Of a stretch of 47,373 bases of DNA, positions 16,181-47,373 are shown one piece after another. Location of the stretch: NCBI GenBank assembly GCA_900617105.1, contig UYFQ01000079.1, positions 1-47,373 of the forward strand, in the 5' to 3' direction. Below the pieces are notes generated by a model. It made no database searches, was not told where the DNA came from, and saw nothing but the letters and a program-made list of their open reading frames with translations. The position numbers were made by a program, and so were the translations under genes. Source of the stretch: Hydrurus foetidus (Eukaryota). Position 1 is the stretch's first letter, and every line of letters begins with the position of its first letter.

Positions 16181-16370
16181 ATGTCTAATCACCCATCTTT
16201 CTTGCAGTAGCTATTCATAATCTCGCGCCATTAAAATTGCTGCAGCTTCATCTGAATTTTCACAACTTAATCACGTGCTGCAGAATGTAATTTATTTTAT
16301 TCCAGTCTAACAATGTAGCAGCAGAGGTTCTACGCAGTGAATCAGATACTGTACTGAATGTAAGGCGTCT

Positions 16371-17306: not shown

Positions 17307-18256
17307 CGTTTCTTTTCAGTGATTCATTGATGACGGTGGCGTCTAATGCTGCTTTGCTACAGGTACTGAGAAGAAATGCAGCAGTCAGCAGCTTGCATTG
17401 CAAGAGATGCTCGAGTTTCGCGAGTTGAGTTGTGAGCAGACATCTGATCAGACATCAGACACACCATGGCATGAGACGTGTGGTAGTCCGACTGAATAAG
17501 CTGACTATCGAACCTAATTCCCCAAGAACTGACTATCGAACCTACTTCAACTTCAACTTGCTGTGTCAGACATTCAAGGCAGCGTTGTGTCTATAATCAA
17601 CCTATCAGTAGTTTGGGATGTAGTAAGTTATACCTTTGTGATCGCATTGACTTGACGACATGATAGATGATACACAACATACATTGTCATCGAATCCACC
17701 GGATTTCCCGACCATTTATTTAAGTGACACATAATGTAGAAAATTGGGAATGAAATATCTTTTCATCAGTATTCTTCGCCTATTCTGTTGTGAGCTTGCC
17801 TTCTAGAAGGTCGACGGAATTCCTGGTAACTCCTGCATGTCTGATGACCACCGCAACGGAAGAATATTTGCTGCAATTTCCATTATTTAGTGGCTTCAAA
17901 TATCATTTCAGAAAATAGAAAGGCGCAAATTAATCATGTAAACTCGTTGCCCAAGTAAGCAGTATTTCTACATAATCATACGTCCCTCAAATCGGATACA
18001 GCAGGTAGTCGATCGTAATGATAATCATTCAAGCAAGAAGTGCCATGGATATGAAGAATCAAAGAATGCATGTATAAATGTAAACTCTCCTACAGTATCG
18101 CATCAGCGCTGTAGAAGTGAAACGTGATTGAATCACGTCTAGGTTCATCACACGGTAGTCGAATGCAGAGATAAATGAGAGGAGAGGATAGGAAAAGAGA
18201 GGAGATTAGAGGAGATAAGGGAAAAGAAGGGAGAGACGTTCAAGCTGTCTGTTGCC

Positions 18257-20041: not shown

Positions 20042-21166
20042 GATACATATCAAAATCTGGTGTCGAGTGACATCTGGATCTTCCTATCAGCAGCCGCACC
20101 AAAGTCTCCACCAATCAGTTTGATTACATCATGACTTTAATGCTGGCAGATGGAGGATGTTGAAAGAAGTTGCTGGAGGAGATCGAGCGAGATTCATGAT
20201 CCGATCTGGGATCCGATCAAGATTCTTCTTCCTTCTCAAGCGTTTCACAAAAGTCACATGCCGTACTAAATTTGAAGAAAAACTACCGAATTTACGGAAT
20301 GAGGTCATCTAATTCTCTTCAGCAGACTGTAGACTGTGAAAGATGGTGATAACTGCATGATGTGACGACAAGCGAAATGCGAAATGCTATGAGATGGCTA
20401 CTAAGCTTATTTCCACGGATGACGCCATCGTTGGACTGAATGACATTTGGTCATTTAACACATCACTTCAACTCTATATGGAAATGACATGCCCAGATTC
20501 TACGGATTTTCCGATTCTTCGAATCAAAGATGTGATGACTGGGCTGTTCGGACATTTATATGTCAACAGCATGGAACATGCATGTGTTACGTTACGTTGC
20601 TGTGAGTTCAAAGTGAGTCGAAATGATGTGGACACAAAGGAACATTTCTCCGCTCAGCCAATACGTGATGCGTCATCTCCCCACTCTGACTACTGCTTTA
20701 CAGGAACAGCTGTGATTATTGGAATTATTTCTTGCAGCTTCAATCAACTTCAATACTAGTCTGTATGTCAATTTTGTTCCTGTAATTTTTAACTTTATTT
20801 TTATCAAACCAGATGCGGGAGAGAAGAACGAAATAGAAACAAAGATGGATTAATGACATGAAGTCAAACGCAGCACTCCAGACAGAATGTTATGAGACTG
20901 ATGGCTGGTTGTAAAGAATCTACGATCCGTTACTGAGGATGATCGGCTAGGAGTGCTCCATCCTCTACTGAGAAGACGAAGCTACTTCCGCACTGCACAA
21001 TAACGTGCAGCATGGAAGCGGGAGCGGAAGGCAGTTGAAATGATGTAATAAAAATGCGTTGAGCAGAGTCTAATACGCGTAATGTGAGATGCATCTCACC
21101 AATGCCATCAGCGCTGTTGGCTTTGATAAATAGACACCATGGTGTCGGACTGAAACAGTGTCCATC

Positions 21167-23681: not shown

Positions 23682-24048
23682 TACGACATGAGATAAGAAG
23701 GGATGAAATAAGTCGGAGGAAGGGAATTTATCAATATAGGATTAGATAGGATAGGGTAAGATAGAATGCTAACTTGTGATGGCTTCTGTTTGCATGGTAG
23801 ACTCGAAAAGAGACGAAAAGAGAAGACTGCGGAGGAGAAAGAAAGAGAAGAGAGCTTGCAGCAGATTGACTCAATTTGATTTGGTTGGTTGGAGAGAGGT
23901 TGTACCCTGAATGCATACAAATTCACCCTTATCGACGCATCTCATTCAATTCACTTCAATTCAATTCAATTCAATTAATTCTGAGAGCAGGAATCACAAT
24001 GAATGTGTACAGAAAGATCGATTATTCGTACAGTTCATTACGTTTTCT

Positions 24049-24130
24049 GTCTAGTCTAGTCTAGTCTAGTCTAGTCTAGTCTCAGTCTAGTCTAGTCTAG
24101 TCTAGTCTGGTCTAGTCTAGTCTAGTCTAG
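24049..24130. repeat. (GTCTA)n microsatellite
   Basis: Seen directly; abuts the large array. Confidence 0.95.
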
Positions 24131-27100
24131 CAGTGCAGTGCAGTGGGTGCAGTGCAGTGCAGTGCAGTGCAGTGCGGTGCAGTGCAGTGCCAGTGCAGTG
24201 CAGTGCGTGCGGTGCAGTGCAGTGCAGTGCGGTGCAGTGCAGTGCAGTGCAGTGCAGTGCGGTGCAGTGCAGTGCAGTGCGGTGCGGTGCGGTGCGAGTG
24301 CGGTGCAGTGCGGTGCGGAGTGCGGTGCAGTGCGGAGTGCGAGTGCGGTGCGGTGCAGTGCGGTGCGGTGCAGTGCGGTGCGGTGCGAGTGCGTGCAGTG
24401 CGGTGCGGTGCGGTGCGGTGCGGTGCAGGTGCGGTGCAGTGCAGTGCAGTGCGGTGCGGTGCAGTGCAGTGCAGTGCAGTGCGGTGCAGTGCGGTGCGGT
24501 GCGGTGCGGTGCAGTGCGGTGCGGTGCAGTGCGGTGCGGTGCGGTGCGGTGCGGTGCGGTGCGGTGCAGTGCGGTGCAGTGCGTGTGCGGTGCAGTGCGG
24601 TGCAGTGCAGTGCGTGCGGTGCGGTGCGGTGCAGTGCGGTGCGGTGCGGTGCGTGCGGTGCGGTGCAGTGCGGTGCAGTGCAGTGCGGTGCGGTGCGGTG
24701 CAGTGCAGTGCGGTGCAGTGCAGTGCGGTGCGGTGCGGTGCGTGCAGTGCGGTGCGGTGCGGTGCGGTGCGGTGCGGTGCGGTGCGGTGCAGTGCGGTGC
24801 GGTGCGGTGCGGTGCAGTGCGGTGCGAGTGCGTGCGGTGCAGTGCGGTGCAGTGCGAGTGCAGTGCGGTGCAGTGCGGTGCGGTGCGGTGCAGTGCGGTG
24901 TAGTGCGGAGTGCAGTGCGGTGCAGTGCAGTGCGGTGCAGTGCAGTGCAGTGCAGTGCAGTGCAGTGCAGTGCGGTGCGGTGCAGTGTGGTGCGGTGCAG
25001 TGCGGTGCGGTGCGGTGCGGTGCGGTGCGGTGCGGTGCGGTGCAGTGCAGTGCAGTGCAGTGCAGTGCAGTGCAGTGCAGTGCAGTGCGGTGCGTGCAGT
25101 GCGGTGCGGTGCGGTGCGGTGCAGTGCGGTGCGAGTGCGGTGCGGTGCAGTGCAGTGCGGTGCAGTGCGGTGCGGTGCGGTGCAGTGCGGTGCGTGCGGT
25201 GCGGTGCAGTGCGGTGCGGTGCGGTGCGGTGCGTGCGGTGCGGTGCGTGCGGTGCGGTGCGGTGCAGTGCGGTGCGGTGCGGTGCGGTGCGGTGCGGTGT
25301 GCGGTGCGTGCGGTGCGGTGTGGTGCGGTGCGGTGCGGTGCGGTGCAGTGCGGTGCGGTGCGGTGCGGTGCGGTGCGGTGCGGTGCGGTGCGGTGCGGTG
25401 CGGTGCGGTGCGGTGCGGTGCGGTGCAGTGCGGTGCGGTGCGGTGCGGTGCGGTGCGGTGCAGTGCGGTGCAGTGCGGTGCGGTGCGGTGCGGTGCAGTG
25501 CAGTGCAGCGGTGCAGTGCAGTGCGGTGCAGTGCAGTGCGGTGCGGTGCGGTGCGGTGCGGTGCGGAGTGCGGTGCGGTGCAGTGCGGTGCAGTGCGGTG
25601 CGGTGCGGTGCGGTGCGGTGCGGTGCAGTGCGGTGCGGTGCGGTGCAGTGCGGTGCGGTGCAGTGCGGTGCGGTGCGGTGCAGTGCGGTGCGGTGCGTGC
25701 GGTGCGGTGCGGTGCGGTGCGGTGCGGTGCGGTGCGGTGCGGTGCGGTGCGGTGCGGTGCGGTGCGGTGCGGTGCGGTGCGGTGCGGTGCGGTGCGGTGC
25801 GGTGCGGTGCGGTGCAGTGCGGTGCGGTGCGGTGCAGTGCGGTGCGGTGCGGTGCGGTGCGGTGCGGTGCGGTGCGGTGCGGTGCGGTGCGGTGCGGTGC
25901 GGTGCGGTGCGGTGCGGTGCGGTGCGGTGCGGTGCGGTGCAGTGCGGTGCGGTGCGGTGCGGTGCGGTGCGGTGCGGTGCGGTGCGGTGCGGTGCGGTGC
26001 GCAGTGCGGTGCGGTGCGGTGCAGTGCAGTGCGGTGCGGTGCAGTGCAGTGCGGTGCGCAGTGCAGTGCGGTGCGGTGCAGTGCGGTGCGGTGCAGTGCG
26101 GTGCAGTGCGGTGCAGTGCAGTGCGGTGCGGTGCGGTGCGGTGCGGTGCGGTGCGGTGCGGTGTGGTGCAGTGCGGTGCGGTGCAGTGCAGTGCGGTGCG
26201 GTGTAGTGTAGTGTAGTGTTGTGTAGTGTTGTGTATTGTTGTGTATTGTTGTGTAGTGCAGTGCAGTGTGGTGCGGTGCGGTGCGGTGCGGTGCGGTGCG
26301 GTGCGAGTGCGGTGCGGTGCGGTGCGTGCGCGGTGCGGTGCGGTGCGGTGCGGTGCGGTGCGGTGCGGTGCGGTGCGGTGCAGTGCAGAGTGCGGTGCAG
26401 TGCAGTGCGGTGCAGTGCAGTGCAGTGCGGTGCAGTGCGGTGCGGTGCAGAGTGCAGTGCGGTGCGGTGCGGTGCGGTGCAGTGCAGTGCGGTGCGGTGC
26501 GGTGCGGTGCGGTGCGGTGCGGTGCAGTGCGGTGCGGTGCGGTGCGGTGCGGTGCGGTGCGGTGCGGTGCGGTGCAGTGCAGTGCGGTGCGGTGCGGTGC
26601 GGTGCGGTGCAGTGCGGTGCGGTGCGAGTGCGGTGCAGTGCAGTGCGGTGCAGTGCAGTGCAGTGCGGTGCGGTGCAGTGCAGTGCAGTGCGGTGCGGTG
26701 CAGTGCGGTGCGGTGCGGTGCGGTGCGGTGCGGTGCGGTGCAGTGCAGTGCAGTGCGGTGCGGTGCGGTGCGGTGCGGTGCGGTGCAGTGCAGTGCGGTG
26801 CGTGCGGTGGGTGCAGTGCGGTGCGGTGCGGTGCGCGGTGCGGTGCGGGTGCGGTGCGGTGCGGTGCGGTGCGGTGCGGTGCGGTGCGGTGCGGTGCAGT
26901 GCGGGTGCGGTGCGGTGCGGTGCGGTGCGGTGCGGTGAGTGCGGTGCGGTGCGGTGCGGTGCGGTGCGGTGCGGTGCGGTGCGGTGCGGTGCGGTGCGGT
27001 GCGGTGCGGTGCGGTGCGGTGCGGTGCGGTGCGGTGCGGTGCGGTGCGGTGCGGTGCGGTGCGGTGCGGTGCGGTGCGGTGCGGTGCGGTGCGGTGCGGT

Positions 27101-30100
27101 GCGGTGCGGTGCAGTGCGGTGCGGTGCGGTGCGGTGCAGTGCGAGTGCGGTGCAGTGCGGTGCGGTGCGGTGCAGTGCAGAGTGCAGTGCAGTGCAGTGC
27201 GGTGCGGTGCAGTGCAGTGCAGTGCAGTGCGGTGCGGTGCGGTGCGGTGCAGTGCGGTGCAGTGCGGTGCAGTGCGGTGCGGTGCAGTGCAGTGCAGTGC
27301 GGTGCGGTGCGGTGCGGTGCGGTGCGGTGCAGTGCGGTGCGGTGCGGTGCGGTGCAGTGCAGTGCAGTGCGGTGCGGTGCGGAGTGCGGTGCGGTGCAGT
27401 GCGGAGTGCGGTGCGGTGCGGTGCGGTGCAGTGCGGTGCAGTGCAGTGCAGTGCAGTGCGGTGCAGTGCAGTGCGGTGCAGTGCAGTGCAGTGCAGTGCA
27501 GTGCGGTGCGGTGCGGTGCGGTGCGGTGCGGTGCGGTGCGGTGCGGTGCGGTGCAGTGCGGTGCAGTGCGGTGCGGTGCGGTGCGGTGCGGTGCGGTGCG
27601 GTGCGGTGCGGTGCGGTGCGGTGCGGTGCGGTGCGGTGCGGTGCGGTGCGGTGCAGTGCGGTGCGGTGCGGTGCGGTGCGGTGCGGTGCGGTGCGGTGCG
27701 GTGCGGTGCGGTGCGGTGCGGTGCGGTGCGGTGCGGTGCGGTGCGAGTGCGGTGCAGTGCGGTGCGGTGCGGTGCGGTGCGGTGCGGTGCGGTGCGGTGC
27801 GGTGCGGTGCGGTGCGGTGCGGTGCGGTGCGGTGCGGTGCGGTGCGGTGCGGTGCGGTGCGGTGCGGTGCGGTGCGGTGCGGTGCGGTGCGCAGTGCGGT
27901 GCGGTGCGGTGCAGTGCAGTGCGGTGCGGTGCGGTGCGGTGCAGTGCGGTGCGGTGCGGTGCGAGTGCGGTGCGGTGCGGTGCGGTGCGGTGCAGTGCGG
28001 TGCAGTGCGGTGCGGTGCGGTGCGGTGCGGTGCGGTGCGGTGCGGTGCGGTGCGGTGCGGTGCGGAGTGCGGTGCGGTGCGGTGCGGTGCGAGTGCAGTG
28101 CGGTGCGGTGCGGTGCGCGGTGCGGTGCGGTGCGGTGCGGTGCGGTGCGGTGCGGTGCGGTGCGGTGCGGTGCGTGCGGTGCGGTGCGGTGCAGTGCGGT
28201 GCGGTGCGGTGCGGTGCGAGTGCGGTGCGGTGCGGTGCGGTGCAGTGCGGTGCGGTGCGGTGCGGTGCGGTGCGGTGCGGTGCGGTGCGGTGCGGTGCGG
28301 TGCGGTGCGGTGCGGTGCGGTGCAGTGCGGTGCGGTGCGGTGCGGTGCGGTGCGGTGCGGTGCGGTGCGGTGCGGTGCGGTGCGGTGCGGTGCGGTGCGG
28401 TGCGGTGCGGTGCGGTGCGGTGCGGTGCGGTGCGGTGCGGTGCGGTGCGGTGCAGTGCGGTGCGGTGCGGTGCGGTGCGGTGCGGTGCGGTGCGGTGCGG
28501 TGCGGTGCGTGCAGTGCGGTGCGGTGCGGTGCGGTGCGGTGCGGTGCAGTGCGGTGCGGTGCAGTGCAGTGCGGTGCAGTGCAGTGCGGTGCAGTGCAGT
28601 GCAGTGCGGTGCGGTGCGGTGCGGTGCGGTGCGGTGCAGTGCAGTGCAGTGCAGTGCGGTGCGGTGCGGTGCGGTGCGGTGCGAGTGCGGTGCGGTGCGG
28701 TGCGGTGCGGTGCGGTGCGGTGCAGTGCGGTGCGGTGCGGTGCGGTGCGGTGCGGTGCGGTGCGGTGCGGTGCGGTGCGGTGCGGTGCGGTGCGGTGCGG
28801 TGCGGTGCGGTGCGGTGCGGTGCAGTGCGGTGCGGTGCGCAGTGCGGTGCGGTGCGGTGCAGTGCGGTGCGGTGCAGTGCGGTGCGGTGCGGTGCGGTGC
28901 GGTGCGGTGCGGTGCGGTGCGGTGCGGTGCGGTGCGGTGCGGTGCGGTGCGGTGCGGTGCGGTGCAGTGCGGTGCGGTGCGGTGCGGTGCGGTGCGGTGC
29001 GGTGCGGTGCGGTGCGGTGCGGTGCAGTGCGGTGCGGTGCGGTGCGGTGCGGTGCGGTGCGGTGCGGTGCAGTGCGGTGCGGTGCGGTGCGGTGCGGTGC
29101 GGTGCGGTGCGGTGCGGTGCGGTGCAGTGCGGTGCGGTGCGGTGCGGTGCAGTGCGGTGCGGTGCGGTGCGGTGCGGTGCGGTGCGGTGCGGTGCGGTGC
29201 GGTGCGGTGCGGTGCGGTGCGGTGCGGTGCAGTGCAGTGCGGTGCGGTGCGGTGCGGTGCGGTGCGCGGTGCAGTGCGGTGCGGTGCGGTGCGGTGCGGT
29301 GCGGTGCGGTGCGGTGCGGTGCGGTGCGGTGCAGTGCGTGTGCGGTGCGGTGCAGTGCGGTGCGGTGCGGTGCGGTGCAGTGCGGTGCGCAGTGCAGTGC
29401 GGTGCAGTGCGGTGCAGTGCGGTGCGGTGCGGTGCGGTGCGGTGCGGTGCGGTGCGGTGCGGTGCGGTGCAGTGCGGTGCGGTGCGGTGCGGTGCGGTGC
29501 GGTGCGGTGCGGTGCGGTGCGGTGCGGTGCGGTGCGGTGCGGTGCGGTGCGGTGCGGTGCGGTGCGGTGCGGTGCAGTGCGGTGCAGTGCGGTGCGGTGC
29601 GGTGCGGTGCGGTGCGGTGCGGTGCGGTGCGGTGCGGTGCGGTGCGGTGCGGTGCGGTGCGGTGCAGTGCGGTGCGGTGCGGTGCGGTGCGGTGCGGTGC
29701 GGTGCGGTGCGGTGCGGTGCGGTGCAGTGCGGTGCGGTGCGGTGCAGTGCAGTGCGGTGCGGTGCGGTGCAGTGCGGTGCAGTGCGGTGCGGTGCGGTGC
29801 GGTGCAGTGCGGTGCGGTGCGCAGTGCGGTGCGGTGCAGTGCGGTGCGGTGCGGTGCGGTGCGGTGCGGTGCGGTGCAGTGCGGTGCGGTGCAGTGCGGT
29901 GCGGTGCGGTGCGGTGCGGTGCGGTGCGGTGCAGTGCGGTGCGGTGCGAGTGCAGTGCGGTGCGGTGCGGTGCGGTGCGGTGCAGTGCGGTGCGGTGCGG
30001 TGCGGTGCGGTGCGGTGCGGTGCGGTGCGGTGCGGTGCGGTGCGGTGCGGTGCGGTGCGGTGCGGTGCGGTGCGGTGCGGTGCGGTGCGTGCGGTGCGAG

Positions 30101-31860
30101 TGCGGTGCGGTGCGGTGCGGTGCGGTGCGGTGCGGTGCGGTGCGGTGCAGGTGCGAGTGCGGTGCGGTGCGGTGCGGTGCGGTGCGGTGCGGTGCGGTGC
30201 GGTGCGGTGCAGTGCGGTGCGGTGCGTGCGGTGCAGTGCGGTGCAGTGCGGTGCGGTGCAGTGCAGTGCGGTGCGGTGCGGTGCGGTGCGGTGCGGTGCG
30301 GTGCGGTGCGGTGCAGTGCAGTGCGGTGCGGTGCAGTGCGGTGCGGTGCGGTGCAGTGCGGTGCGGTGCGGTGCGAGTGCGGTGCAGTGCGGTGCGGTGC
30401 GGTGCGGTGCGGTGCGGTGCAGTGCGGTGCGGTGCGGTGCGGTGCGGTGCAGTGCAGGTGCAGTGCGGTGCGGAGTGCGCGGTGCGGTGCGGTGCGGTGC
30501 GGTGCGGTGCGGTGCGGTGCGGTGCGGTGCGGTGCGGTGCGGTGCGGTGCGGTGCGGTGCGGTGCGGTGCGGTGCGGTGCGGTGCGGTGCGGTGCAGTGC
30601 GGTGCAGTGCGGTGCGGTGCGGTGCGGTGCGGTGCGGTGCGGTGCAGTGCGGTGCGGTGCGGTGCGGTGCGGTGCGGTGCGGTGCGGTGCGGTGCGGTGC
30701 GGTGCGGTGCGGTGCGGTGCGGTGCGGTGCGGTGCGGTGCGGTGCGGTGCGGTGCGGTGCGGTGCGGTGCGGTGCGGTGCGGTGCGGTGCGGTGCGGTGC
30801 GGTGCGGTGCAGTGCGGTGCGGTGCAGTGCAGTGCGGTGCGGTGCGGTGCGAGTGCAGTGCGGTGCGGTGTGGTGCGGTGCGGTGCGGTGCGGTGCGGTG
30901 CAGTGCGGTGCGGTGCAGTGCGGTGCGGTGCGGTGCGGTGCGGTGCGGTGCGGTGCAGTGCGGTGCGGTGCGGTGCGGTGCGGTGCAGTGCAGTGCGGTG
31001 CAGTGCGGTGCAGTGCACAGTGCGGTGCGAGTGCGGTGCGCAGTGCGGTGCGGTGCGGTGCAGTGCAGTGCGGTGCGGTGCGGTGCGGTGCAGTGCGGTG
31101 CGGTGCGGTGCAGCGGTGCGGTGCGTGTGCGGTGCGGTGCGGTGCGGTGCGGTGCGGTGCGGTGCGGTGCGGTGCGGTGCGGTGCGGTGCGGTGCGGTGC
31201 GGTGCGGTGCGGTGCGGTGCGGTGCGGTGCGGTGCGGTGCGGTGCGGTGCGGTGCGGTGCAGTGCGGTGCGGTGCGGTGCGGTGCGGTGCGGTGCGGTGC
31301 GGTGCGGTGCGGTGCGGTGCGGTGCGTGCGGTGCGGTGCGGTGCGGTGCGGTGCGGTGCGGTGCGGTGCAGTGCGGTGCAGTGCAGTGCAGTGCGGTGCG
31401 GTGCGGTGCGGTGCGGTGCGGTGCGGTGCGGTGCGGTGCGGTGCAGTGCGGTGCAGTGCGGTGCAGTGCAGTGCGGTGCAGTGCGCGGTGCGGTGCGGTG
31501 CGGTGCGGTGCAGTAGTGCGGTGCGGTGCGGTGCGGTGCGGTGCGGTGCGTAGTGCGGTGCGAGTGCGGTGCGGTGCGGTGCGGTGCGGTGCAGTGCGGT
31601 GCGTGCTGAGTGCGGTGCGGTGCGGTGCTGCAGTGCGGTGCGGTGCGGTGCAGTGCGGTGCAGTGCGAGTGCGGTGCGGTGCTGCAGTGCGGTGCGGTGC
31701 GGTGCGGTGCGGTGCAGTGCGGTGCGGTGCGGTGCGGTGCGATGCTGTGCGGTGCGGTGCGGTGCGGTGCGCAGTGCGGTGCGTGCGGTGCGGTGCGGTG
31801 CAGTGCGGTGCGGTGCGGTGCGTGCTGTGCGATGCTGATGCGGATGCTGATGCTGATGCT
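24131..31860. repeat. 7.7 kb pentamer satellite (GTGCG/GTGCA)n, about 1,500 units
   Basis: Seen directly. Richer in GTGCA at the left end and mostly GTGCG further right; degenerate GTGTA/GTATT patch at about 26200-26255. Confidence 0.98.
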
Positions 31861-34233
31861 GTGCGGTGATGGTGCCGTGCAGAGGCATCTTTTTCTCGAA
31901 GATGCGAGTGAGTGCGGCAGTGCGGTGGGTGCTGAGTGGGCCATGTACTTGTACATGGTTCTCCACCACCTCACGAAACTGAGTCATGCAGCGCATCTCA
32001 ATCTCCCTTTTGTTGTAACAAAAGGCGAGATGGACTTCGAGAAATGCTCAGCTAGTGACTGCCCCAGCTGTGTGTCCGCGCGAAAGTAGCGCAGGACTAA
32101 TTGCGCTACTTGAGGGACCGTCAGTGTTTGGAGCCACACTTTACGTGTCTCTTCCGCATATGGATAATCTTGATCCGTATGGATCTGATCATCGATACAC
32201 CTGACTGCTTTAGTCGAGATGACTTGACCAACATCATAGTTGTTGGTCCACCTCTGGGAGTGTTCGAAAAACTCCCGTGCGGCCTCTTGTCCAATAATGC
32301 CTGACGCATTCACGTTGAGAACGTAAAGTACCGTTTGCAAGGCAATAGCGGAGATGGGTCGAGAACCATCGTCCACAGCACGGCCACCCACTACAAGCGC
32401 TGTAGATGCCGCATTGGGTGTGGCAAACTGTACCGCGGGTACGTTGATCGGTGACGTACGATCGTGTATGTACCGTGGTATCGGTGGTCGTACCGGGGGC
32501 GCTGCATTGGGGTCGGGACCGCCCCCTGCCGTTTGTGCACGGAATGCTGCTGTTTGCTGCTCGTAATCGATTTTGCGATCCGTTGCAGGCAGTACCACGA
32601 TGTCTGGAGGATCCAAGGGGAGTGGGTTAGGAACCCGAATTTCCCGTGGGATCTCCTGGATGACTCGTTGGGGTTGTGGGTTGTAATCCGTGTCACCGGT
32701 GAACGTACGTACGTATGTAGGCCGTTCCGGTGACCCTGGTGGGGAAGCTTGTCGCTTGCGTGATGTGGGACCCTCTTGTGGAGGTGACGCGCGTTTGCGA
32801 GGAACGTCCGCTGTGCGGGTTATTGTCTCCACATTTTCGGGGATGCGCGTATCGCGACTCTCGAGTAGTCGAGAGTTGTCGGTAACGCGTACGGTTGCCC
32901 GTGGAGTCGCACGTTCGTCCTCGTACTGGTTGTCGTTGTACTGACGACCGTCAGTATTACGGTTGCCCCGGTTGAAGGTATCCTGTTGGCGACGATTGTC
33001 TCCTTGAGGATAATCCCTTGGGGGACTGTCATCGTAACCCTGTGGGGGTTCTCGACGACTTCTCCTATTGGGGTTGTTGTCTCCCTGACGGAAACTGTCG
33101 TTGTTGTCGTCGCGAGAATTATCGAAACTGCGAGTGTTAGTCGAATAATTTCCCCTGTTTGGGTTGTCATTACGACGAGAATCCTCGTAATTACGATTAT
33201 CCCTTTGGGGGTTATCGTTGTGACGTTGGAAAGTGTCTCTGCGATTATCCCTGTTAGGGTTGTCGTCTTGTTGGCGATGGTCGTGCTCGCGACGCCCGTC
33301 ATTCTGACGTGGGTTGTCGTCGTTGCGACGATTGTCGCTGTTGCGTCGATCGTCGTATTGACGTCTGTTGTCGTCGTTGAATTGGGTGTCGTAGCCGCGA
33401 CGACCATCGTTGTCGTGACTGTCGTCATTCTGACGGTAATTGTCGTTATAACGACGATTATCGCTCTGACTTTTGTCGTTGCGGCGATCGTCGTTATATT
33501 GACGTCCCTCGTTATCGTAACGAACGTCGTTACGGTGCTCCGTACCGTATGAAGGGCCCGTATTACGGTTGTCCCTGGGAGGGTTGGAGTCATCGTAGGT
33601 ACGACGATTGTCGTTGTGACTTTGATTGTCATCATTAAAACGTCGATAATCGTTGTTGTTCCGATTATCGTCATTGTATTGGCGTTGGTTAGAATCGTGG
33701 CGTTGACGGTTATCGTAACGATTACCGTCACCACCGTCTTCGCTACCACTCTGTTGGTTCTGAGTGGGCGAGTAGTCGCCCGTTGCATCTCCGTCGACGG
33801 GGTTATTCCGACGAGTTGAGTTGTCGTAACTGTCGAGGCCCTGACGACGGAGGTATCGTTGCGGGGGTGAATCTATACGGCGGCGGGGGTTAGTATCGCC
33901 GTCGTCATCATCCCGGTCAGGGTTGCCGTTATGGCGTGTCTGATGACGATTTGCGTCTGACGAACGCAACGTGACATTGTCATGTTGTCGCGTCGTCTGA
34001 ATGTCGTCGTCGTCGTCGTTATGACGATTAGGCGGCGCCTGATTGGAACTGTTGGTAGGTCCCAGTATTGTTACTGGGAATACCGGGCGATCAGTTCCGT
34101 CAGACGCAGCTACTGCTGTCGGCGCTGTTGGTGTCGACTGAGTTATCGTAACTGTCGTCGCTGCCGGAACTACTTGAGTAGTTAATTCGGCGAGCGACGG
34201 CGATATCTCCGAAGAGTCATCGGATAACGGCAT
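31860..34233 (-). mobile_element. Truncated gag of another Gypsy family (element E) with a long N/D/R/Q-rich N-terminal region
   Basis: 749-aa ORF plus a frameshifted continuation (EIEMRCMTQFREVV...TRIFEKKMPLHGTIT) that resembles B2 Gag (NVELAAIARLRDIL...CKIIYKKLPLDNKFT). Runs into the satellite. Confidence 0.65.
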
Positions 34234-34651
34234 TGTTAAATGACTTATTGCTTGACAATTTCAAGTAGCGGAAGTCGCCAAAAAAAATTTGCAAGGGCTT
34301 CGCCTCGTGCCGTTTGGATGAAAATCAAACAGACGATTAGGCGAAGTTAAATAAGTCAAATAAAGTCTGGACGGATGAATGAATCAATCCGTACAGAATG
34401 AGCCGGGATTGGGAGACTTGCTCGACCAACCACGAGAACGGCGTGGAAGACAAAGCTATCCACGGACGTCAGCCAAGCAAAGCTTGAGGCGAGAGATGGG
34501 CAGAAGTTAACTGAGTTAACTCTACACAATAGTTTGGGATTGCTGAGATGAAACTCAAGCAACCACAAGACAGTCAAGTATCGGGAGATTCCGAGTGACT
34601 AAGTTTACGGCGACCAGACTTCGGAGACTTGCTCGCGATAGTAAGAATTGC

Positions 34652-34920
34652 ATCGGTGGTGTACTCTTCCAAATTGTCAACACCGTGTGGAGACCAATTG
34701 CCTTTATAAGCAAATCTCTATCGGCAACACAAATTAATTGGTCGACGATACAAAAAGAAGCTTATGCCATCTTTTTCTGTTGCCAACAACTCGATTATCT
34801 CATTCGAGACCGAAAGTTCACTATTCATACTGACCATATGAATTTGACTTACATGAAACAAAACCCTACCTCAATGGTAGCACGGTAGTTCATTGCAATG
34901 AGTCCATTTCTCCGACCACA
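34652..34920 (+). mobile_element. Relic of an A-family element: RNase H fragment plus an LTR terminus
   Basis: IGGVLFQIV...WSTIQKEAYAIF...NPTSMVAR*FIAM closely matches element A. Ends TCCGACCACA, the reverse complement of the first 10 nt of the A LTR. Confidence 0.85.
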
Positions 34921-37900
34921 GTGGTGCAGAGTTGGGGTTCACCACGTAGGCCCCGAAGGACCCTACGATTGATTACATCCCCAACCTGACATCCGGTGTC
35001 GATTTGTGATAGGGCGGCCATGCCACTATTTTGGTCCGTAGCTGGAGGAGGATTTAGGTGGGGACCGGTCTCGATCGCGGCGATCTTTGTCTTTGTCTTT
35101 GTCTTTGTCTTTGTCTTTGTCTTTGTCTTTGTCTTTGTCTTTGTCTTTGTCTTTGTCTTTGTCCGTTTGGCACGAGTCTTCTTCTTTGTCAATGCGGTCG
35201 CCAAAGCGGTAGCCGGGGATGGGGTCTGAGGAAGATATATGTGTACTTGTAAGTATTCGACAATCTTGTCAGGTATGATTGCCGATAAAAGCATTTGCAT
35301 TTTTGGCAAAATACGAGTTTCGGATTTATTTTCCGTATTCGGAAGATTGGACTCACGTTTTCCTTTGTACGCGCAGTCTTTGATTTCGCGAGTATTTGTC
35401 GATCGTTGTCGCGATTGGACCGGTCGTCGTGGCGATTGTTGGAATTGTTGTGGGCTTTGGCCTTGTTGTTCTTTTTGTTGTTGGTCTTGCGAGGATCTTC
35501 TTTTGCGACGGGAGCCATATCCATTTCGACGTCTTCAGTTGGGTAGACGTATGTTGCAGCGCCCCGATTATTGGTTGTCCTGGTCATTTCGCCGTTGAGG
35601 AGGATGTTTGGCACGAAATGGTTGTGGTCAAATCGTTTGAACTCTGTGGCAGTCGTGGATTGACTCCACGTGCAGCACGTGTTGTTGTAGTGTGGGTTCA
35701 TGAATTGTCGACAATCGTAACGATTGTGTCCGGCGCGACCGCAGGTGTGGCAAGTGTCAACTGTTTTGCTCAAGCCTGGGAAGACGTCGGAGTCTCATTT
35801 TGGTATTGTGCGACAGGAGGCGGAGAGCTGTGTAATGTTGCTGGGCGACAATGTGTCGGGCGTGATTTTGGTCTCGAAGTCGTAACGAAGACCACCCATG
35901 TTGGACGCGTTGATAACTGTTTGCCGAGCTTCACTGAGGCAGAGATTCATTCGGCACAACATGTTCGGGATGGAATCCTTTTTGTTGTTTCTTGTTTTGT
36001 CCTTTGTAATGTTCATGAAATTCTCGGTGAACTTATTATCTCAGTGAGCTCTGTGTAGATGATCTCACAGATCTTGTGTTGGCATTCGGCAGGTATATTG
36101 TCGTAACTTCTGTAGTATCCGAAGAGGATATCTCGGAGTCGCGCAATTGCCGCCAACTCTACGTTTGGGTTTTGCCATTTGATCTTCATTTGCCAGTTTT
36201 TTAGGGAAAGGTCCAGGTCATAGGTAGACTCTGTGGCACGATCACTGAAGAAGAGTTTCTTGAGGTCGGTTGCTATGTCGCGTATGGATAGGAGTTTGTC
36301 GTCGATGATGGGCCAAGTTTAACACATTTTGATTGTGTATCCGAGAGTCTTTCTATTTTGTAGTAGACTGTCTCGGATCACATGAACAGCTTCGTCTTCA
36401 ATCAGGTCTTTCCAAGGTGCATTAAACTGAGGGCGGTGAGCCTGGGTATAGAACTTTCGGGCTGTGCCGTCCATGTCCTTCAGTAATGTCTCACGTGTTA
36501 CATAAAACACTTCCTTCATGTTGATGAGGGAGGTTGTGAGTGCTTGGGGTGTCCTTTGTTGTTCGAAGATTGTGTCTGCCTCTTCGGTTTTGCGCTTGCG
36601 GTTCGAAGTGGCGGCCGCTTTCGTGGAAGCTGGTGCTGTTTTCTTTGCAGCTACTACCATTGTTTTCGACGTTTTGGATCTGGTAGCGCGTGTGGGTTTG
36701 TCTTCAGTTTGGACGGCAGTGAGGGTTTTCGCCTCCCTTGTTTTGGCAAGGGGTTTGATAGGCATAGACTTTTTCTTTTTCGGATTTGGAGATGGGGAAT
36801 CTTCCGCTTCCGACTCGCTTTGATCTTCCTCGTCTGATTGAGACTTGGTGTCGTCGTTGTCGTTGTCCCCCTCTTCTTCCTCGTCATTGGTTTGTTCTTC
36901 TTCCGCCTCTTCAGAGGCGTTGTCAGTAACTGAGACGTTATCATCGTCGGATAGGGTTTCCTTCGGAGATGCTTTGGTGCCAGTTTTGTCGTCGTCCTCT
37001 TCCGTTTGAGGAGGATTGATATCCTCTTCTTCTGCGGTTTAGAGTCGGAGTGGAGAGCCATCCTCGTCTGACTGAGGGATGAGACTCTGTAAGTCATTTG
37101 TCTCCTTCATCCAGGCTGACAAGTCTTTTAGTTCTTGATCTTCGAGATCAGATCGGTGGTCGGCCTGTTCCTGCAGCACTTCAAGTCGCGAACGATTACG
37201 TTCGCGTTCTTGTTGTTGCTGCAGGTAGCGTACCTCATTTGCTGCCAATTCGTCGGATACTCGAGTATGGGTGTTCGAGGCTTTGATAGCCGATTTCCCC
37301 ATCTCTTTCATGGAGTTGGCTATATTGTCTTCTCGAGCGAGTCGCTCGAGTTTAGCCTTCTCTTTTTCCGATAGGAAGAGGATATTTTGTGGTTTGGGGC
37401 GTTTAGAAGAGGAGCTAGCTTCGCTAAAGCTCTCCCTCTTGGTTTGTGGGGCCTTGACCATCTTGAAATCTTGGCCTGAGAATTATGACTGGAACTCTAC
37501 ATCTTGGACAGCGACGGGACTCGGACGCGGTGATTCAGGGAAAAGACGAGTAGGTTTTTCAGGTATGAGGAATCGTAGGTTAAGGATGTGGTAGGAGGAG
37601 TCAGGGGGATTGGAATGGTTTCGTGCGATTTCGGGAGGAAATCGCGACGAAATTGGGTAGTGGTCGGCGGCTTCGTAAGCTACGAAGCTGGGCTTCCCGA
37701 GCGAGACGCTCGAGTTTAGCCTTCTCTTTTTCCGATAGGAAGAGGATATTTTGTGGTTTGGAGCGTTTGGAAGACGAGCTAGCTTCGCTAGAGCTCTTTT
37801 CCTTGGGTTTTTGGGCCTTAACCATCTTGAAAACTTGGCGTGGGAAATCTCACTGGAACTCTGCGTCTTGGACAGCGACAGAACGCGGACGCGGTGATGT

Positions 37901-38595
37901 AGGGAAAAGAGGAGTAGGTTGGTAAGTTGTGAAGACTGGTAGGTAAAGGGTGTGGTAGTAGAAGTCAGAAGGATTGGATTGGTTTGGTGCGATTTCGGGA
38001 GAAAATCGCAACAAAATTCGGACGTGGGCAGCGGCTTCGTAAGGAACGAAGCTGGGCGTGGGCGCGTTGGATTTCGTTCGTGAACGAGTTTGGAAGGTGT
38101 TACTTGCTTGCAAGTTCCTTTCCTTCGTAAGCCTTCGAGTAGAAGAGCTCCACGATATTTGGGAATAAATCGCCAATGTTTGAGGTCGTTAACGACTACG
38201 ATTCAGAGGCTGTCAAGTTGACGAGACCTTTGTAGTAGTGTTTATGGTGGTTTTCACTCTTAAAAAGCTACACAACTTGTTTGCTCGGACTGTTTTACGG
38301 TCGTTGCGAGGTTTTTTGTTGGGTTCTTTGGGCAACTTGGATCTCAGAGATCGCTAGTTGGTTCCAAATAGATCTATTGTGGCCTTGCTAGGATCTTGGC
38401 ACTGGGAGCAGGACGGCTGGGAGCGGGGGCAAGAGAAAGGGGGTTGGGGGAGCTATTGCTATGGATAACAATGTGGTTAGCTTACAGGTAAACACAACAG
38501 ATATCATGGCAATGAATCGTGTGGATCGGATCGTCCTCGATCTGATCCGAACATACGCCTGTACCCGTACAGCCCGTACGGGTGTGCGGGCCACA
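34921..38595 (-). mobile_element. Degenerate Gypsy element B1 (5' LTR, UTR, gag with CCHC knuckle, start of protease)
   Basis: Gag closely similar to B2 but with nonsense codons (37039, 36319, 35795); CHTCGRAGHNRYDC; IDTGCQVG protease motif; cut at 34921. Confidence 0.9.
38378..38595 (-). repeat. 5' LTR of B1 (218 bp)
   Basis: TGTGGCC...GGCCACA perfect 7-bp inverted termini; homologous to the LTRs at 39703 and 44729. Confidence 0.92.
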
Positions 38596-39702: not shown

Positions 39703-39918
39703 TGTGGTCTCACTAGGACTCTGGGCTGGAACGGAGGGCTGCTAGAACGCGGGCGAAGGAAAGGGGGTGATGGGGCTGGTGCTATGGATAGCAAAGTGGT
39801 TAGCTTACAGATAAACACAGCAGGTATCATGGCAATGAATCGTGTGGATCGGATCGTCCTCGATCCGATCCGAACGTACGCCTGTACCCGTACCGCCCGT
39901 ACGGGTGTACGGGTCTCA
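39703..39918 (-). repeat. 3' LTR of element C (216 bp); polypurine tract at 39919-39934
   Basis: Minus strand reads AGATAGAGAGGGGCAC|TGAGACC...GACCACA; homologous to the B1 and B2 LTRs. Confidence 0.92.
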
Positions 39919-40344: not shown

Positions 40345-43300
40345 TTATCGGTAGTTCGCGATGAATTCGCGTGGTATTAAATGTTTAAGGTTCTTTTTTA
40401 TCAAAAATTCATGTACTTTTTGCGACTTGCGCATATGTGTCCACGGTTCCCAGGTGTTGTGTTCCTGAGTATAGTTGAGCCATTTCACATGAAATGTGAG
40501 TGTTTTGTAAGCTCGAATGTTACCTTTCATTTCTAAAATATCTTCGATGAAGAATTCTAGGTAGTCCCTACGAGCTATGTCGGTTGGGTCTACATGAGTT
40601 GGGTCGAATTGGAAAGGTTTTAATTGTGTCATGTGGTACACTTTTTCTTTATGTGTTATTAGATCGAGTAAAGTATACTCTGCGAAGTTGTGACTGACAA
40701 CTCGCATCGGACCACGCCACAGTGTGTGCATGCGTGTTTCCGGTGTTGTTCGCTGTTGCACAAGTACATATGTATCGACTCCAAATTGTGTGATGTTGGG
40801 TGATTGTTGTGCATTGTGGATGTCGTCTGATTCTTTGAGTAAACGTGCAGTGATTTGGATAAGTTCATCCTGCAACGTCAACATTGTATCTGTTGATTTC
40901 GATAGTGAATGGGATTTCAAATCGATTTCGTCTCGCGGGAGTAGGATATTGGCATCGAGGTCGATAGCGTTGCCATAGATGAGTTGTGCAGGTGACACTT
41001 TCATACGGTCGTTTACAGTTGAATTTAGTATTCTTTGTACGAATGGTAGTATTTCCGCGTAATTTTCCGTTGTTGCGCGTTCGTACGCGTATGCGGTGAT
41101 GTGACGATTTATTTCTTTGTTGATACGTTCGACGATAGCGTTTTCTTCTGAACAGTATGGTAATATTTTGTTGTGGGTTGTACCAACAATTTTCACGAAC
41201 TCATCGATAATGTGAGCGACGAAGTGTGGGCCATTATCTGATCGAAGTATAGATGGTGTGCCGTATCGGCCCACGTGTTCTATGAGTGCTTTGCACGCTG
41301 CTTTAGCTGTTGCATCAGGTGTAGCATAGAGTTCGACAAATCTCGAAAATGTGTCGATCATAACAAGGATGTATCCTTTATCTGGGAATGGTCCGATGAA
41401 GTCAATATTAAGACATTCCATTGGTTTGTATGTTGATGTCGTGTACCTATATGCATTGATGGGATATTTCATGGCCGACATCTTTTGGCAACAAGGACAA
41501 TTTTTTATGAATGTTTTTACTGCGTCACGCATTCCCAACCATATGTTATTTGATTTTTTTAAATTACGCAGAGTGCGTTGAACACCACCGTGTCCGACTG
41601 TAGTGTTATGACACTTTGCAATTATGTTATATTGCTCTGTCGTCAGCGGTTTGTGTGTCAGAATTGCAGCTATTATTCCTGTTTTAGGTAGCATTCTGTT
41701 TTTACATAGGCGAGACATTGCATCGGCAATTTCGTTTTGTTTCCCAGGGATATATCCTATCGTATATTCTAATTCTTGCAGGGCCATACGCCATCTGCTG
41801 ACCATTTTGTTCTTGTCTTTTTCAAGGAACGTAAGATTTTTGTGGTCTGTTAGAATAGTGAATTTACGATCTCGTAGCAGTGCGTCGAGATAGGTACAGC
41901 AATAATATAGCGCGAAGGCTTCTTTTTGTATTACTGACCATTTCAGTTGAGTCTTGGTAAGAGACTTGCTTACAAGAGCGACAAGTTGTTTTTCCCCGTC
42001 GACTTCTTGATACAAATAGCCGCCTATACCGTAATCCGAAGCATCGGTCATTAGGGTTATGGGCGCTGTATCGTGTATAAAATATAATAAAGGACTCTGT
42101 GCAATTAGATCTTTGATCTTTTGGAAAGAGTTCGCAGCGTCATCTGTCCAGATAAGCAATGATTGCTTTTTCGCTGCGTGATCGATCATTTTATGCAGTG
42201 GTGCAACCACGTTAGAGTGATTTGGTACATGATCCCGAAAATAGTTGGTGAGACCAAGAAACGATCTTAGTTCGGTCGTCTTTCTTGGCATAGGAAAGTC
42301 GGTCACACCTCTTATTTTTTTAGAGCTCATAGTTATACCATCTTTAGATATTTGTTTACCAACATATTCAACTAATTTTACATTTAGTTTAAGCTTTGCA
42401 GCTTTTAGTGATATGTTTTTTTCTTCGAGACGTTGAAACAATATTTCTAAATCGCAGAACTCCTCAAATCCATTACCATAAACGATTATATCGTCGAGGT
42501 ATACTTCACAAATGTGATATATTAGTCCCAGAAGGACTATTGTGGCCATCATTTCTTGGAAATATGAGGGAGCTCTTTTGGGTCCGAATGGTAGTCGGGT
42601 AAAGTGGTAAATACCCATAAAGGTGATGAACGCGGTGTACACGCGTGTACTCAGAGTTAGTGGGGCTTGGTGATAACCTGCAGTGAGGTCGATTACACCG
42701 AATGTGTCTGCCTTTTGTGAACCTAATCTCGCTAACATTTGTCTAATATTAGGAATTGGCCAGCTTGCTGACTCTGTTGCATCGTTGAGGTGACGGTAGT
42801 CAATACAGAATCGGTATGAACCGTCTGGCTTAGACGCAAGTGTAACTTGTGAGTAGTATGATGCCTCTGATTTGACTATTATACCCTGTTCTAGCATAGT
42901 ATCAACTTGTTTACGGATTTCAATTTGTTTCCGTAATGACGTTTGTCGGGGTGCTACACGATTCCTGAATACTTTCCATTCTGGATCCCGTACGGGTAGT
43001 CCAAACGGTGGAATACGTGCAGGTTCCGGCCCGAGTTTGTTGTTGAAAAGCTTAATGTGTTTGACACAGATTGCTCTTATTTTTACTATTTGGTCAGGGG
43101 TACCATCGATGTGTATTAAATCGATGAGGTACATTTTATCCTCTGTTGGATTGTCTTGGAAAGGAGCGAAGGTATCCTTCGACTTGTAGTCAATCTCTTC
43201 GGGTCCGAAGGGTTGAACCTCCGGGAGTTCTTCACGCTCCCGGAGTAGAGCAGCAACTAGACCACGCGTTTGAGCTGGTGCCTTGGATGAGGGAGTAGGA

Positions 43301-44728
43301 GTAGCTAATTCCGGACTCCTGTCGGTTGTTAAACCTAAATCACTGTGTCGGGGAGGTGACAACAAAACTGCTGCCTCGACCGTAGAGTGCACAGTGAACT
43401 CATCTAAAACAAGTTGAGCCGCTGCCGCAGCTGAACCTGTGGGACACCCGCATGATGCAGTGCATGTCTTGCTTGTACAAGCACCTCGAGCCACCAGGTC
43501 GTCTTGCCATCGACTGTCTGCGTCTGAGGGTTTTATCCCCTCCTGGCTAGTTATAACCAGAGGTATGTTGTGTGTGTTTTTATTTTGTTGCGTTGTGTCA
43601 GTGTAGGTGACGACATGTTCAGGTTCTGCATATAGCAGCTGTACTGGAATAGTTGTAAGAACGTCTGTTCTCGACTTTTGTAATTGTTTTGACGTCGGAT
43701 GTGGAAGAAGTTTTGTTCCGATTTGATCTACATTTTGGAAGAATTCTGGAAGAATTTTTACCAGGTTGAGATCTTTGATTGTTTTTAATCCGAGGATTAA
43801 ATCGACTTTGGAGTCTTCCGCAATTCGGACAGGAAGAGCGAAAGTGTATTTGAGAAAATCTTTTTTAAATGATACAACAATATCAAGCACATGTGTAGAT
43901 TCAATACATTGATTATTTAGACCGGAACACATCCATAAGGGAGTGTCCGTTGTGCGCAAGTGGGGTTCGCCTTGCAGGCCCCGAAGGACTCTACGGTTGA
44001 CTACGTCCCCAACTTGGCATCCGGTGTCGAGTTGTGCGAGAGCGGCCAAGTCGTTACTTGGGCTCGTATTTGTTGGAGGAGGAGGATTTCCCGGAGGTGT
44101 TGTTGTCGTCCCGGCGGTTGTCTTTGTCTTTCGCCGAGTCGCGCGACTCTTCCTTGCGGGAGTTGTCACGGTCGCGATCGGTAGCGCGGTGGTTGGGACG
44201 GTAACCGGGGATCGGATCTGTGGTAGAGATATTGTTACTTGTAAGTAATCGTCTATGTTTTCAGGTAATATCGCTGATAGTAGTTGTGTCATGTTTGGAA
44301 TTTTCTGACTGTCGTCAGAATGCAATGCATGCGCGTCAGTCAATGACAACTTACTTTTGCCTTTGTATCCGAACTCTTCGCCGGTTTTGTTGTTGACGTT
44401 TCCGCGGCTACGGTTTGCGTCACGATCGGTGTTGCGGTCGTTGGCGTTGTTGTTGTTGCGTTCGTTATCGCGATCGTTGTTGGTACGATCCGACTTCGCA
44501 TTGTTGTTGTTGTTGTTGTTGTTGTTTTTGTTATTGTTGTGTTTGTTTTTGTTGTTGTTGTTTTGGGGTTGTTTCTCTGGACCCTTGTCGGTGGTGTCTC
44601 CTTCCGTGGGATAGATGTATGTGGACGCTCCATGATTGATGGTAGTTTTCGTCATTACCCCGTTGAGGTAGACGTTTGGCACGAAGTGAGGGTGGCCGAT
44701 TCGGCGGAAATCGGCTGACTCCGGTGAC
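40345..44728 (-). CDS. Element C Gag C-terminus and Pol: PR-RT-RNaseH-IN-chromodomain
   Basis: LDTGCQVG, CIDYRHLN, RLPFG, YLDD, TDASDYGIGG, IDFIGP/RSDNG/IVER, LWRGPM, FHVKWLNY..NTWEPW. Confidence 0.95.
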
Positions 44729-44937
44729 TGTGACCACGTGGGGCTGTACGGGTACAGGCGTACGTTCGGACCGGATCGAGGACGATCCGATCCATCCGAT
44801 TCATTGCCATGATACCTGCTGTGTTTACCTGTAAGCTAACCACATTGTTTCCATAGCAATAGCTCTCCCAGCTTCTTTTCCCTCGCTCCCGCTCCCAGCT
44901 GACCCGCTCCCAGTGCCCAGATCCTGGCAAGGCCACA
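44729..44937 (+). repeat. 5' LTR of B2 (209 bp)
   Basis: TGTGACC...GGCCACA; homologous to the B1 and C LTRs. Confidence 0.92.
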
Positions 44938-45490
44938 ATACCGGTATTTGGAACCAGCTAGTGATCTCTCAGATCCAAGTTGACCAAACGTCCCAACAAA
45001 AAAATCCCGCAACGACCGTAAAACAGTCTGAGCAACAAGTTGAGTAACTCTTCAGGAGTGAAAACCACCCAAAACGATATAACAAAGGTCTCGTCAACGC
45101 GACAGCCTCTGAATCGTAGTCGTTCGCGACCTCAAATATTGGCGATTTATTCCCAAAATATCGTGTAGCTCTTCTACTCGAAGGCTTACGAAGGAAAGGA
45201 ACTTGCAAGCAAGTAACACCTCCCAAACTCGTTCACGAACGAAATCCAACGCGCCCACGCCCAGCTTCGTTCCTTACGAAGCCGCTGCCCACGTCCGAAT
45301 TTTGTTGCGATTTTCTCCCGAAATCGCACCAAACCAATCCAATCCTTCTGACTTCTACTACCACACCCTTTACCTACCAGTCTTCACAACTTACCAACCT
45401 ACTCCTCTTTTCCCTACATCACCGCGTCCGCGTTCCGTCGCTGTCCAAGACGCAGAGTTCCAGTGAGATTTCCCACGCCAAGTTTTCAAG

Positions 45491-47173
45491 ATGGTTAAGG
45501 CCCAAAAACCCAAGGAAAAGAGCTCTAGCGAAGCTAGCTCGTCTTCCAAACGCTCCAAACCACAAAATATCCTCTTCCTATCGGAAAAAGAGAAGGCTGA
45601 ACTCGAGCGTCTCGCTCGGGAAGACAATATAGCCAACTCCATGAAGACGCTGGGCAAATCGGCTATCAAAGCCTCGAGCACCCATACTCGAGTATCCGAT
45701 GAATTGGCGGCAAACGAAGCACGCTTTCTGCAGCTACAACAAGAACGTGAACGCAATCGCGTGCGACTTGAAGTGCTGCAGGAACAGGCTGACAACAGAT
45801 CTGATCTCGAAGATCAAGAACTGAAAGACTTGTCAGCCTGGATGCAAGAGACAAATGACTTACACAGTCTAAACCCTCAGTCAGATGAGGATGGCTCTCC
45901 AATCCGACCCCAAACCGAAGAAGAAGAGGATATCAATCCTTCTCAAACGGAAGAGGGCGACGACACAATCGGTACCAAAATATCTCCGAAGGAAATTCTC
46001 TCCGACGATGATAACGTCTCGGTGTCTGACAACGTCTCGGAAGAGGCGGAAGACGAACAAACCAACGACGAGGACGAAGAGGAAGACAACAACCCCGACG
46101 ATACCAAGTCCAAATCGGACGAGGAAGATCAAAGTGAGTCGGAGGCGTCAACCCCACCGTCACCAAAACCGAAGAAGAAAGAGGCGATGCCAATCAAACC
46201 CCTTGCCAAAACAAGGGAGGCGAAACAACTCTCTGCCGTCCAATCTGAAGACAAACCCACGCGTGCCACCAGATCCAAAACGTCCAAAGCAACGGTAGCT
46301 GCTGCAAAGAAAGCAGCGACAGCTTCCACGAAAGCGGCTGCCACTTCAAACCGCAAACGCAAAACCGAAGAGACTGACACAGTCTTCGAACAACAACGAA
46401 CACCCCAAGCACTCACAACCTCCCTCATCAACATGAAGGAAGTGTTCTATGTAACACGTGAGACATTACTGAAGGACATGGACGGCACAGCCCGAAAGTT
46501 CTATACACAGGCGCACCGCCCTCAGTTTAATGCACCTTGGAAGGATCTCATCGAAGACGAAGCTGTCCATGTGATCCGAGACAGTCTCCTTCAAAATCGA
46601 AAGACTCTCGGATACACAATCAAAATGTGTCAAACCTGGCCCATCATCGACGACAAACTCCTGTCCATTCGCGACATGGCCACCGATCTCAAGAAACTCT
46701 TCTTCAGTGATCGCGCCACAGAGTCTACCTATGACCTGGACCTTGCCCTAAAAAACTGGCAAATGAAGATCAAATGGCAAAACCCAAACGTAGAGTTGGC
46801 GGCGATTGCACGACTCCGAGACATCCTCTTCGGATACTACGGCAGCTACGACAATATCCCTGCAGACCGCCAACATGAGATCTGTAAGATCATCTACAAA
46901 AAGCTCCCTCTTGATAATAAGTTCACTGAAAACTTCATGAACATTACAAAGGACAAAACAAGAAACAACAAAAAGGATTCCATCCCGAACATGTTGTGCC
47001 GAATGAATCTCTGCCTCAGTGAAGCTCGGCAAACAGTTATCAACGCGTCCAACATGGGTGGCCTTCGTTACGACTTCGAGACCAAAATCACCCCCGACAA
47101 CTTGTCGTCCAGCAGCACAACGCAGCTCTCCGCCTCCTACCGCACAATACCCAAACGCGAATCCGACGCCTAC
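45491..47173 (+). CDS. B2 Gag, interrupted before the zinc knuckle
   Basis: Open frame after the 5' LTR/UTR; colinear with B1 gag until 47173. Confidence 0.85.
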
Positions 47174-47373
47174 TGTGGTCTTGGGCGGGGCCTAGGACGT
47201 TGGAGCTAAAAGTGGTGGTCGGTTGATGCAAGCGGTGGGCAAGGGAAGAAAGGATAGGTGGAGTAAACTTTTGTTAGTATTTTACAGTTGAGTATCTACA
47301 AGTGATGTGTACGCTAAAGTGCATTCACATCATATGTGGAACTAAGACCTAAAAGTGGAATCTGGGCGTAATA
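47174..47373. mobile_element. LTR of a further element (D) inserted in B2 gag, probably in reverse orientation
   Basis: Homology to B1 gag stops abruptly at TGTGGTC, the terminus used by other LTRs here; purine-rich like the reversed LTRs. Confidence 0.7.

Follow-up and report, generated by a model that had tools for sequence, protein, structure and literature searches.

Splice-like signals at the boundary of Gag and protease are conserved at the DNA level across ten lineages of Ty3/gypsy elements, including two copies in the window analysed here (the whole stretch of 47,373 nt), and the shifted frame to which they lead stops before the catalytic Asp of the protease. The signals, as read from DNA, make it likely that a Gypsy clade produces a spliced, Gag-only mRNA of the kind known from BARE1 and EVD. 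In some Copia elements, splicing is the known way in which an LTR retrotransposon with a single open reading frame (ORF) makes more Gag than Pol.

The first of the two copies, B1, lies on the minus strand and comprises a decayed gag with a CCHC knuckle (35357..37461) and a protease core (34920..35025), in which the catalytic Asp of an IDTG motif occupies 35000-34998 and which is truncated near 34920. RT, RNase H and integrase of B1 were absent from the 47,373 nt of the window. The gag is interrupted by stops at 37041-37039, at 36321-36319 and near 35795, and its frame changes near 36043 and 35400. Decay and the break near 35400 had already been recorded in the initial annotation; in the intact relative P0046, the match follows frame -3 as far as 35396 and frame -2 from 35414 on, and since P0046 reads through in one frame, the break is, on this sequence comparison, decay and not a signal. 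B1 is a dead copy, unable to make either protein, and stands as a fossil witness. A 364-bp tandem duplication of its gag start was seen at 37329-38057.

The second copy, element C (minus strand, 40345..44835), lacks the 5' part of gag and holds in one open frame the gag end, protease, RT, RNase H, integrase and chromodomain. Matches were obtained to RVT_1 (residues 669-827), RNase H (896-1021) and H2C2/rve (1067-1222), as well as to a chromodomain at the integrase C-terminus (PF00385, E=2e-7, residues 1431-1477). A polypurine tract precedes its likely 3' LTR (39795..39918, minus strand, putative boundaries). The order protease, RT, RNase H, integrase is that of Gypsy elements, with the integrase after RT and not before it as in Ty1/copia. 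Chromoviruses, of which CRR is one, likewise have the protease-RT-RNase H-integrase-chromodomain order, a CCHC Gag and an LTR with a polypurine tract. By domain order and chromodomain, the B1 family is therefore a chromovirus-like, chromodomain-bearing Ty3/gypsy family, to which B1, itself ending after the protease, is assigned through its homology with C. Gag-Pol is encoded in a single ORF in the intact full-length relatives P0005, P0141 and P0160 (2021-2086 aa), and the same layout was found in loci L005, L006 and L010.

The arrangement of the copies is complex. C, an unexplained 1.2-kb piece and B1 follow one another in tandem. The likely 5' LTR of B1, a TG..CA sequence of 124 bp (38472..38595, minus strand, putative boundaries), sits within a 162-nt repeat (38434-38595) that is 88% like the 3' end of C (39757-39918), despite a likeness between B1 and C of only about 60% in the protease region. 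Folding gave no support for self-priming at the LTR end. A second B-family piece, B2 (plus strand, 44741..47206), consists of an LTR remnant, leader and 5' gag, is 85-93% like B1 and stops short of the intron region. Its LTR is joined head to head with the C gag at 44741, with about 20 LTR bases missing, and this joint looks like the product of deletion or recombination and not of a clean insertion.

The initial annotation had placed in B1 a minus-strand donor, AAC/GTGAGT, with its G at 35356, and an acceptor, TCTTCCTCAG, ending at 35226, and these coordinates proved exact. They delimit a predicted GT-AG intron of 131 nt (35226..35356, minus strand), which in the Pol frame covers the Gag/protease boundary and the first protease strand and, unspliced, reads LLSAI..YLQVHIYLPQ. 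The joined frame also runs as had been claimed, from YKGK through H, PIPGYR.., a (KD)n run and ..KSSSSYGPK to the TAG at 35028-35026, over 66 codons. The stretch 35026..35225 (minus strand) would thus be dual coding, its -1 frame being the predicted last exon of spliced Gag and its Pol frame the protease loop; a GACAAA repeat expansion specific to B1 lies inside it. In C, the predicted homologous intron of 137 nt (44218..44354, minus strand), with donor AAAA/GTAAGT and acceptor CCACAG, is followed by a putative dual-coding tail exon of 54 codons (44054..44217, minus strand) that closes with TAA at 44056-44054. In both B1 and C, the tail stop is 25 nt upstream of the codon for the catalytic Asp. 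Other parts of the initial annotation stood only partly. The 3n+2 spacing holds for B1 and C and fails as a universal rule, as one related locus, L015, has a 3n+1 spacing and a +1-frame tail. The reported likeness of the B1 and C tails was recovered at both ends (PIPGYR and KSSSS..Y.PK) and not elsewhere, the middle being of low complexity and not alignable between them and the whole-tail BLASTP not significant (E=7); over the tail region, BLASTP of the Pol frame aligned 20 residues (E=0.04). The (KD)n run is not conserved, since the long run is special to B1 and the intact B-family protease starts P0029, P0172 and P0174 have a short stretch there.

As splice sites, the B1 signals are strong against the background of C pol. 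The donor fits the U1 consensus at 8/9 positions, which none of 170 GT sites in C pol does, and the pyrimidine tract (10/14) is equalled by 2.5% of 81 YAG sites. The B1 tail also contains a competing CAG at 35042, whose tract has 11 pyrimidines where that of the predicted acceptor has 10; use of this CAG would result in an in-frame cut of 315 nt. In C, no AG occurs at the matching position. The CTRAY branch motif was absent in C, L007 and L013 within the interval scanned.

To place these signals among distant relatives, we used a metagenome scan from which 20 loci were fetched, 14 holding the protease start and 6 lacking the region; viral contigs and a first metagenome scan had given no matches. 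The intron layout was present in 14/14 loci holding the protease start, once weakly and once in another phase, with intron lengths of 86-187 nt that are never a multiple of three. These Gypsy loci are only 41-53% identical to C in Pol (41-87% among lineages), and the retention of the layout at such distance points to an old, widespread route. In L001 and L003-L013, phase 1 of the Pol frame carries a GT 86-122 nt before a pyrimidine tract and CAG, the acceptor CAG is a Gln codon of the Pol frame, and the shifted frame ends 10-70 nt before the catalytic Asp, with TAA, TAG and TGA all used. L002 (161 nt, CAG acceptor) has a weak tract and a GTGATG donor that was chosen by hand. At the same structural place, L015 (1681-1867) has a strong donor and a TAG acceptor in another phase, 187 nt apart, and its tail is rich in Gly, Lys and Arg and ends 56 nt before the catalytic Asp. 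In L015 (213-6163), gag-protease and pol occupy separate, overlapping ORFs.

The donor codon is GGT, AGT, CGT or TGT, so that four amino acids (Gly, Ser, Arg and Cys) stand over a constant GT. In an 867-column codon alignment of nine pol frames, xGT was kept throughout in only two columns, both of an invariant Cys. The acceptor Gln is CAG in 10/10 lineages, in whose pol frames CAG makes up 13-42% of Gln codons; the corresponding chance product is 1.6e-6, for lineages that are not independent and with the B1 background taken from C. As controls, ten invariant downstream Gln columns had CAG in 0-7/9 frames and 21 invariant Gly columns had GGT in 0-8/9, and silent sites are therefore otherwise well scrambled. 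The signals could also be picked blindly, by taking the best acceptor at most 300 nt from the catalytic Asp and, at a distance of 50-250 nt upstream of that acceptor, the best donor in any phase. The homologous pair was returned in 13/17 records (four with ties: L003-L005 and L010), with a further tie in L015, and was missed in B1, L002 and element A among these 17; in B1 this is because the CAG at 35042 has the richer tract.

The codon positions of the overlap were compared. Between B1 and C, differences in the tail blocks fell on Pol codon positions 1/2/3 as 1/8/1, versus 10/7/24 in the flanks, that is, the 3' part of the intron and the protease core (Fisher p=6e-4, for blocks picked after the match was seen); fixed windows of 15, 21 and 30 nt on both anchors gave p=0.02, 0.06 and 0.12. 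In seven families of close relatives, single-step changes at positions 2:1:3 numbered 28:9:0 in the overlap (3 unclassed) against 16:26:10 outside it (5 unclassed), with p=0.0013 for position 2 versus 1, in a test that uses proteins only, excludes windows below 70% identity and may be biased by the amino-acid make-up of the loop. Position 2 of Pol is the wobble position of the -1 frame, and the excess thus fits constraint on the shifted frame. Both tests therefore support the selection on the spliced frame that the initial annotation had suggested, and the outcomes named there as contrary to it, constraint in the Pol frame only or a scatter of stops in the tail, did not appear in the readable DNA. 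Among the run variants listed, three of four tail variants are silent in the shifted frame, too few to count, and the donor GT and acceptor AG are untouched.

The tail also has a distinct composition. Lys and Arg account for 24/46 residues of the seven short tails, compared to 0.14 in the same frame over pol (p=8e-10). The open length of the shifted frame is not unusual, as 6-64% of pol positions give as long a stretch. The homologous tail is exposed in two database proteins from naturally frameshifted copies: P0017 shares PIP and S.SS..Y.PK with B1 and C in the alignment, and the last residues of P0011 are SSKYNPK.

The location of the tail was examined on a structural model of C. The region upstream of RT adopts a retropepsin fold in the model (pLDDT 80), with Ddi1 and retroviral proteases as best matches. 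LQVTIS forms a confident strand (residues 21-26), which, judged by the secondary structure of the model, would correspond to the strand that precedes the active-site strand in retroviral proteases. This strand is followed by coil over residues 27-85 (pLDDT 53-58), which includes the acceptor Gln at position 29, and then by a strand at 86-92 that runs into DTG. The tail exon coincides almost exactly with this modelled loop, and in short-tail relatives the loop is also short. According to the model, the intron would code for N-terminal protease strands and the second exon would be written over a low-confidence surface loop between two strands, so that unspliced RNA could still code for a folded protease. 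The Thr/Ala/Lys/Arg/Pro-rich loop reads as the shadow of the Asp/Arg/Lys/Ser-rich tail.

These observations fit a scheme in which active members of the family would optionally remove a short intron at the Gag/protease boundary. Removal would shift the frame into a short tail with a stop before the protease active site, resulting in a Gag-only mRNA. RNA that retains the intron would serve as the source of Gag-Pol and as genomic RNA, and the spliced RNA would supply surplus Gag that has a basic end of its own and lacks the protease. The rate of splicing would then set the ratio of Gag to Pol, as in BARE1 and EVD.

In the Ty1/copia element BARE1 of barley, an optional intron of 104 nt at the gag end shifts the frame to a stop three residues on (PMC3735527). 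The family described here resembles BARE1 in its single Gag-Pol ORF and in the short, optional, frame-shifting intron at the gag end that gives a Gag-only RNA. It differs in being Gypsy and not Copia and in a tail of 5-66 codons, constrained and lying over a protease loop, where BARE1 stops after three residues; moreover, splicing was shown in BARE1 and is deduced here. In EVD/ATCOPIA93 (shGAG) and other Arabidopsis Ty1/copia elements, the introns, about 300 nt long, take out the entire protease domain and are coupled to early termination (PMC5580714). Conserved donors and acceptors around the protease, and Gag-Pol from intron retention, are common to both systems; in contrast, the intron predicted here covers no more than the N-terminal protease strands, and the codons of the active site remain in the RNA, unused past the stop. 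The same paper reports that conserved splicing was not found in Arabidopsis Ty3/Gypsy. EVD and BARE1 are also the elements that a 2025 review names for the spliced-Gag strategy (PMC12786077), and the spliced cases described in sunflower are Copia as well (PMC7730604). Spliceosomal introns do occur in Ty3/gypsy elements, where Ogre splices between ORFs, CRR removes rt and Bagy2 makes an env RNA (all per PMC3735527), but none of these is described there as a short intron that shifts the frame ahead of the protease active site. In the literature searched, mostly outside subscription papers, this intron type was unreported for Ty3/gypsy, and the available text of PMC12477816 and PMC12465393 is silent on it. 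Among the sources found, a spliced, frame-shifting Gag intron is thus in print only for Copia-type elements; the family works like BARE1 and EVD without being a Copia member, and adds to them the Gypsy setting and the constrained tail over a protease loop.

Spliced molecules were sought in sequencing runs and in proteins. The run search gave six rows from two studies, none on record as RNA; in two of the rows, both labelled glacier metagenome, the share was small (0.05-0.07), and they were not used for habitat. The spliced joint was absent from contigs of the six runs aligned to C (X1-X4) or to B1 (X5, X6, X1 and X3), and contigs of X4, X6 and X1 span the acceptor or the whole intron unspliced. 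This absence weighs little because no run is recorded as RNA. Likewise, no spliced Gag was found among 174 fetched proteins. The searches covered 126 representatives, 2+2 further matches and 40 cluster members, and the blank is weak because such proteins come from gene calls on contigs.

The splice-like signals might instead be by-products of protein constraint and composition, with no splicing involved, since a conserved Gln follows a hydrophobic strand and the Gag end is rich in Lys. Many distant relatives, available as protein only, indeed have a Gln at the end of the strand, Ile, Ser and Leu codons are pyrimidine-rich, and both the run contigs without a spliced molecule (none recorded as RNA) and the non-significant whole-tail comparison of B1 and C agree with this view. 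Nevertheless, protein constraint cannot fix CAG over CAA as observed at the acceptor (10/10 versus 0-7/9 in control columns), and it leaves unexplained the GT under four amino acids, the 28:9:0 pattern in the loop and the other phase of L015, which makes such an origin quite improbable. A real tail frame reached by -1 ribosomal frameshifting near the end of the intron-like stretch seems even less probable, to the point of being very hard to credit. Frameshifting is the common route in Gypsy elements according to PMC3735527, and in both B1 and C about 14 codons of open -1 frame precede the acceptor; however, that frame has a stop at the donor itself, and the Pol frame of B1 and C contains no X XXY YYZ heptamer between a point 61 nt ahead of the donor and one 60 nt beyond the acceptor. 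The donor and the CAG would also be left without explanation, as would the +1 frame of the L015 tail.

A different question is whether splicing, if real, mainly serves surplus Gag. In spliced RNA that reaches the 3' LTR, the 3' UTR would extend over about 4 kb, a feature discussed for EVD as a trigger of decay (PMC5580714), and splicing could accordingly act in attenuation via nonsense-mediated decay or yield a minor regulatory form of Gag. Against this, the constrained amino acids and basic make-up of the tail point to a product that is translated and used, and single-ORF elements need some source of surplus Gag (PMC12786077 and PMC3735527), so that we regard a main role of this kind as unlikely.

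A spliced mRNA for surplus Gag, the reading we prefer, has consequences beyond these copies. The predicted junctions are exact, the overprinted tail in the protease loop offers a clear case of dual coding with graded length, and the likely main Gag product would be overlooked wherever such ORFs are annotated as a single polyprotein. More tentatively, a broad and old clade of chromodomain Ty3/gypsy elements may make its main Gag by splicing, with a basic C-terminal tail overprinted on the protease loop; spliced Gag and Gag cut from Gag-Pol would then differ in their ends, one with an RNA-binding or nuclear-targeting tail and the other without. This wider proposal is possible but somewhat doubtful; if true, it would be a general answer to surplus Gag in single-ORF Gypsy elements, and the overprinted exons, 5 to 66 codons long, would form a natural series.

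The remainder of the window holds further elements and host genes. In element A (125-4103), a third and decayed Gypsy element whose Pol is about 45% identical to that of C, the homologous Gln codon is CAG (284-286, plus strand), a shifted-frame stop follows two codons on, and the donor region is disrupted. A satellite built of 5-bp units (GTGCA/GTGCG) extends over 8 kb (24100-32050) and is adjoined by a Gag-like ORF at 31984-34260 (minus strand) with no Pfam match. One host gene gives a faint indication that the host eukaryote may be an alga. Host genes lie at 9400-23700, including, by eye, a WD-repeat-like multi-exon gene, together with a pantoate-beta-alanine ligase (16371-17315, minus strand) and an exostosin GT47 protein (18257-20083, minus strand).
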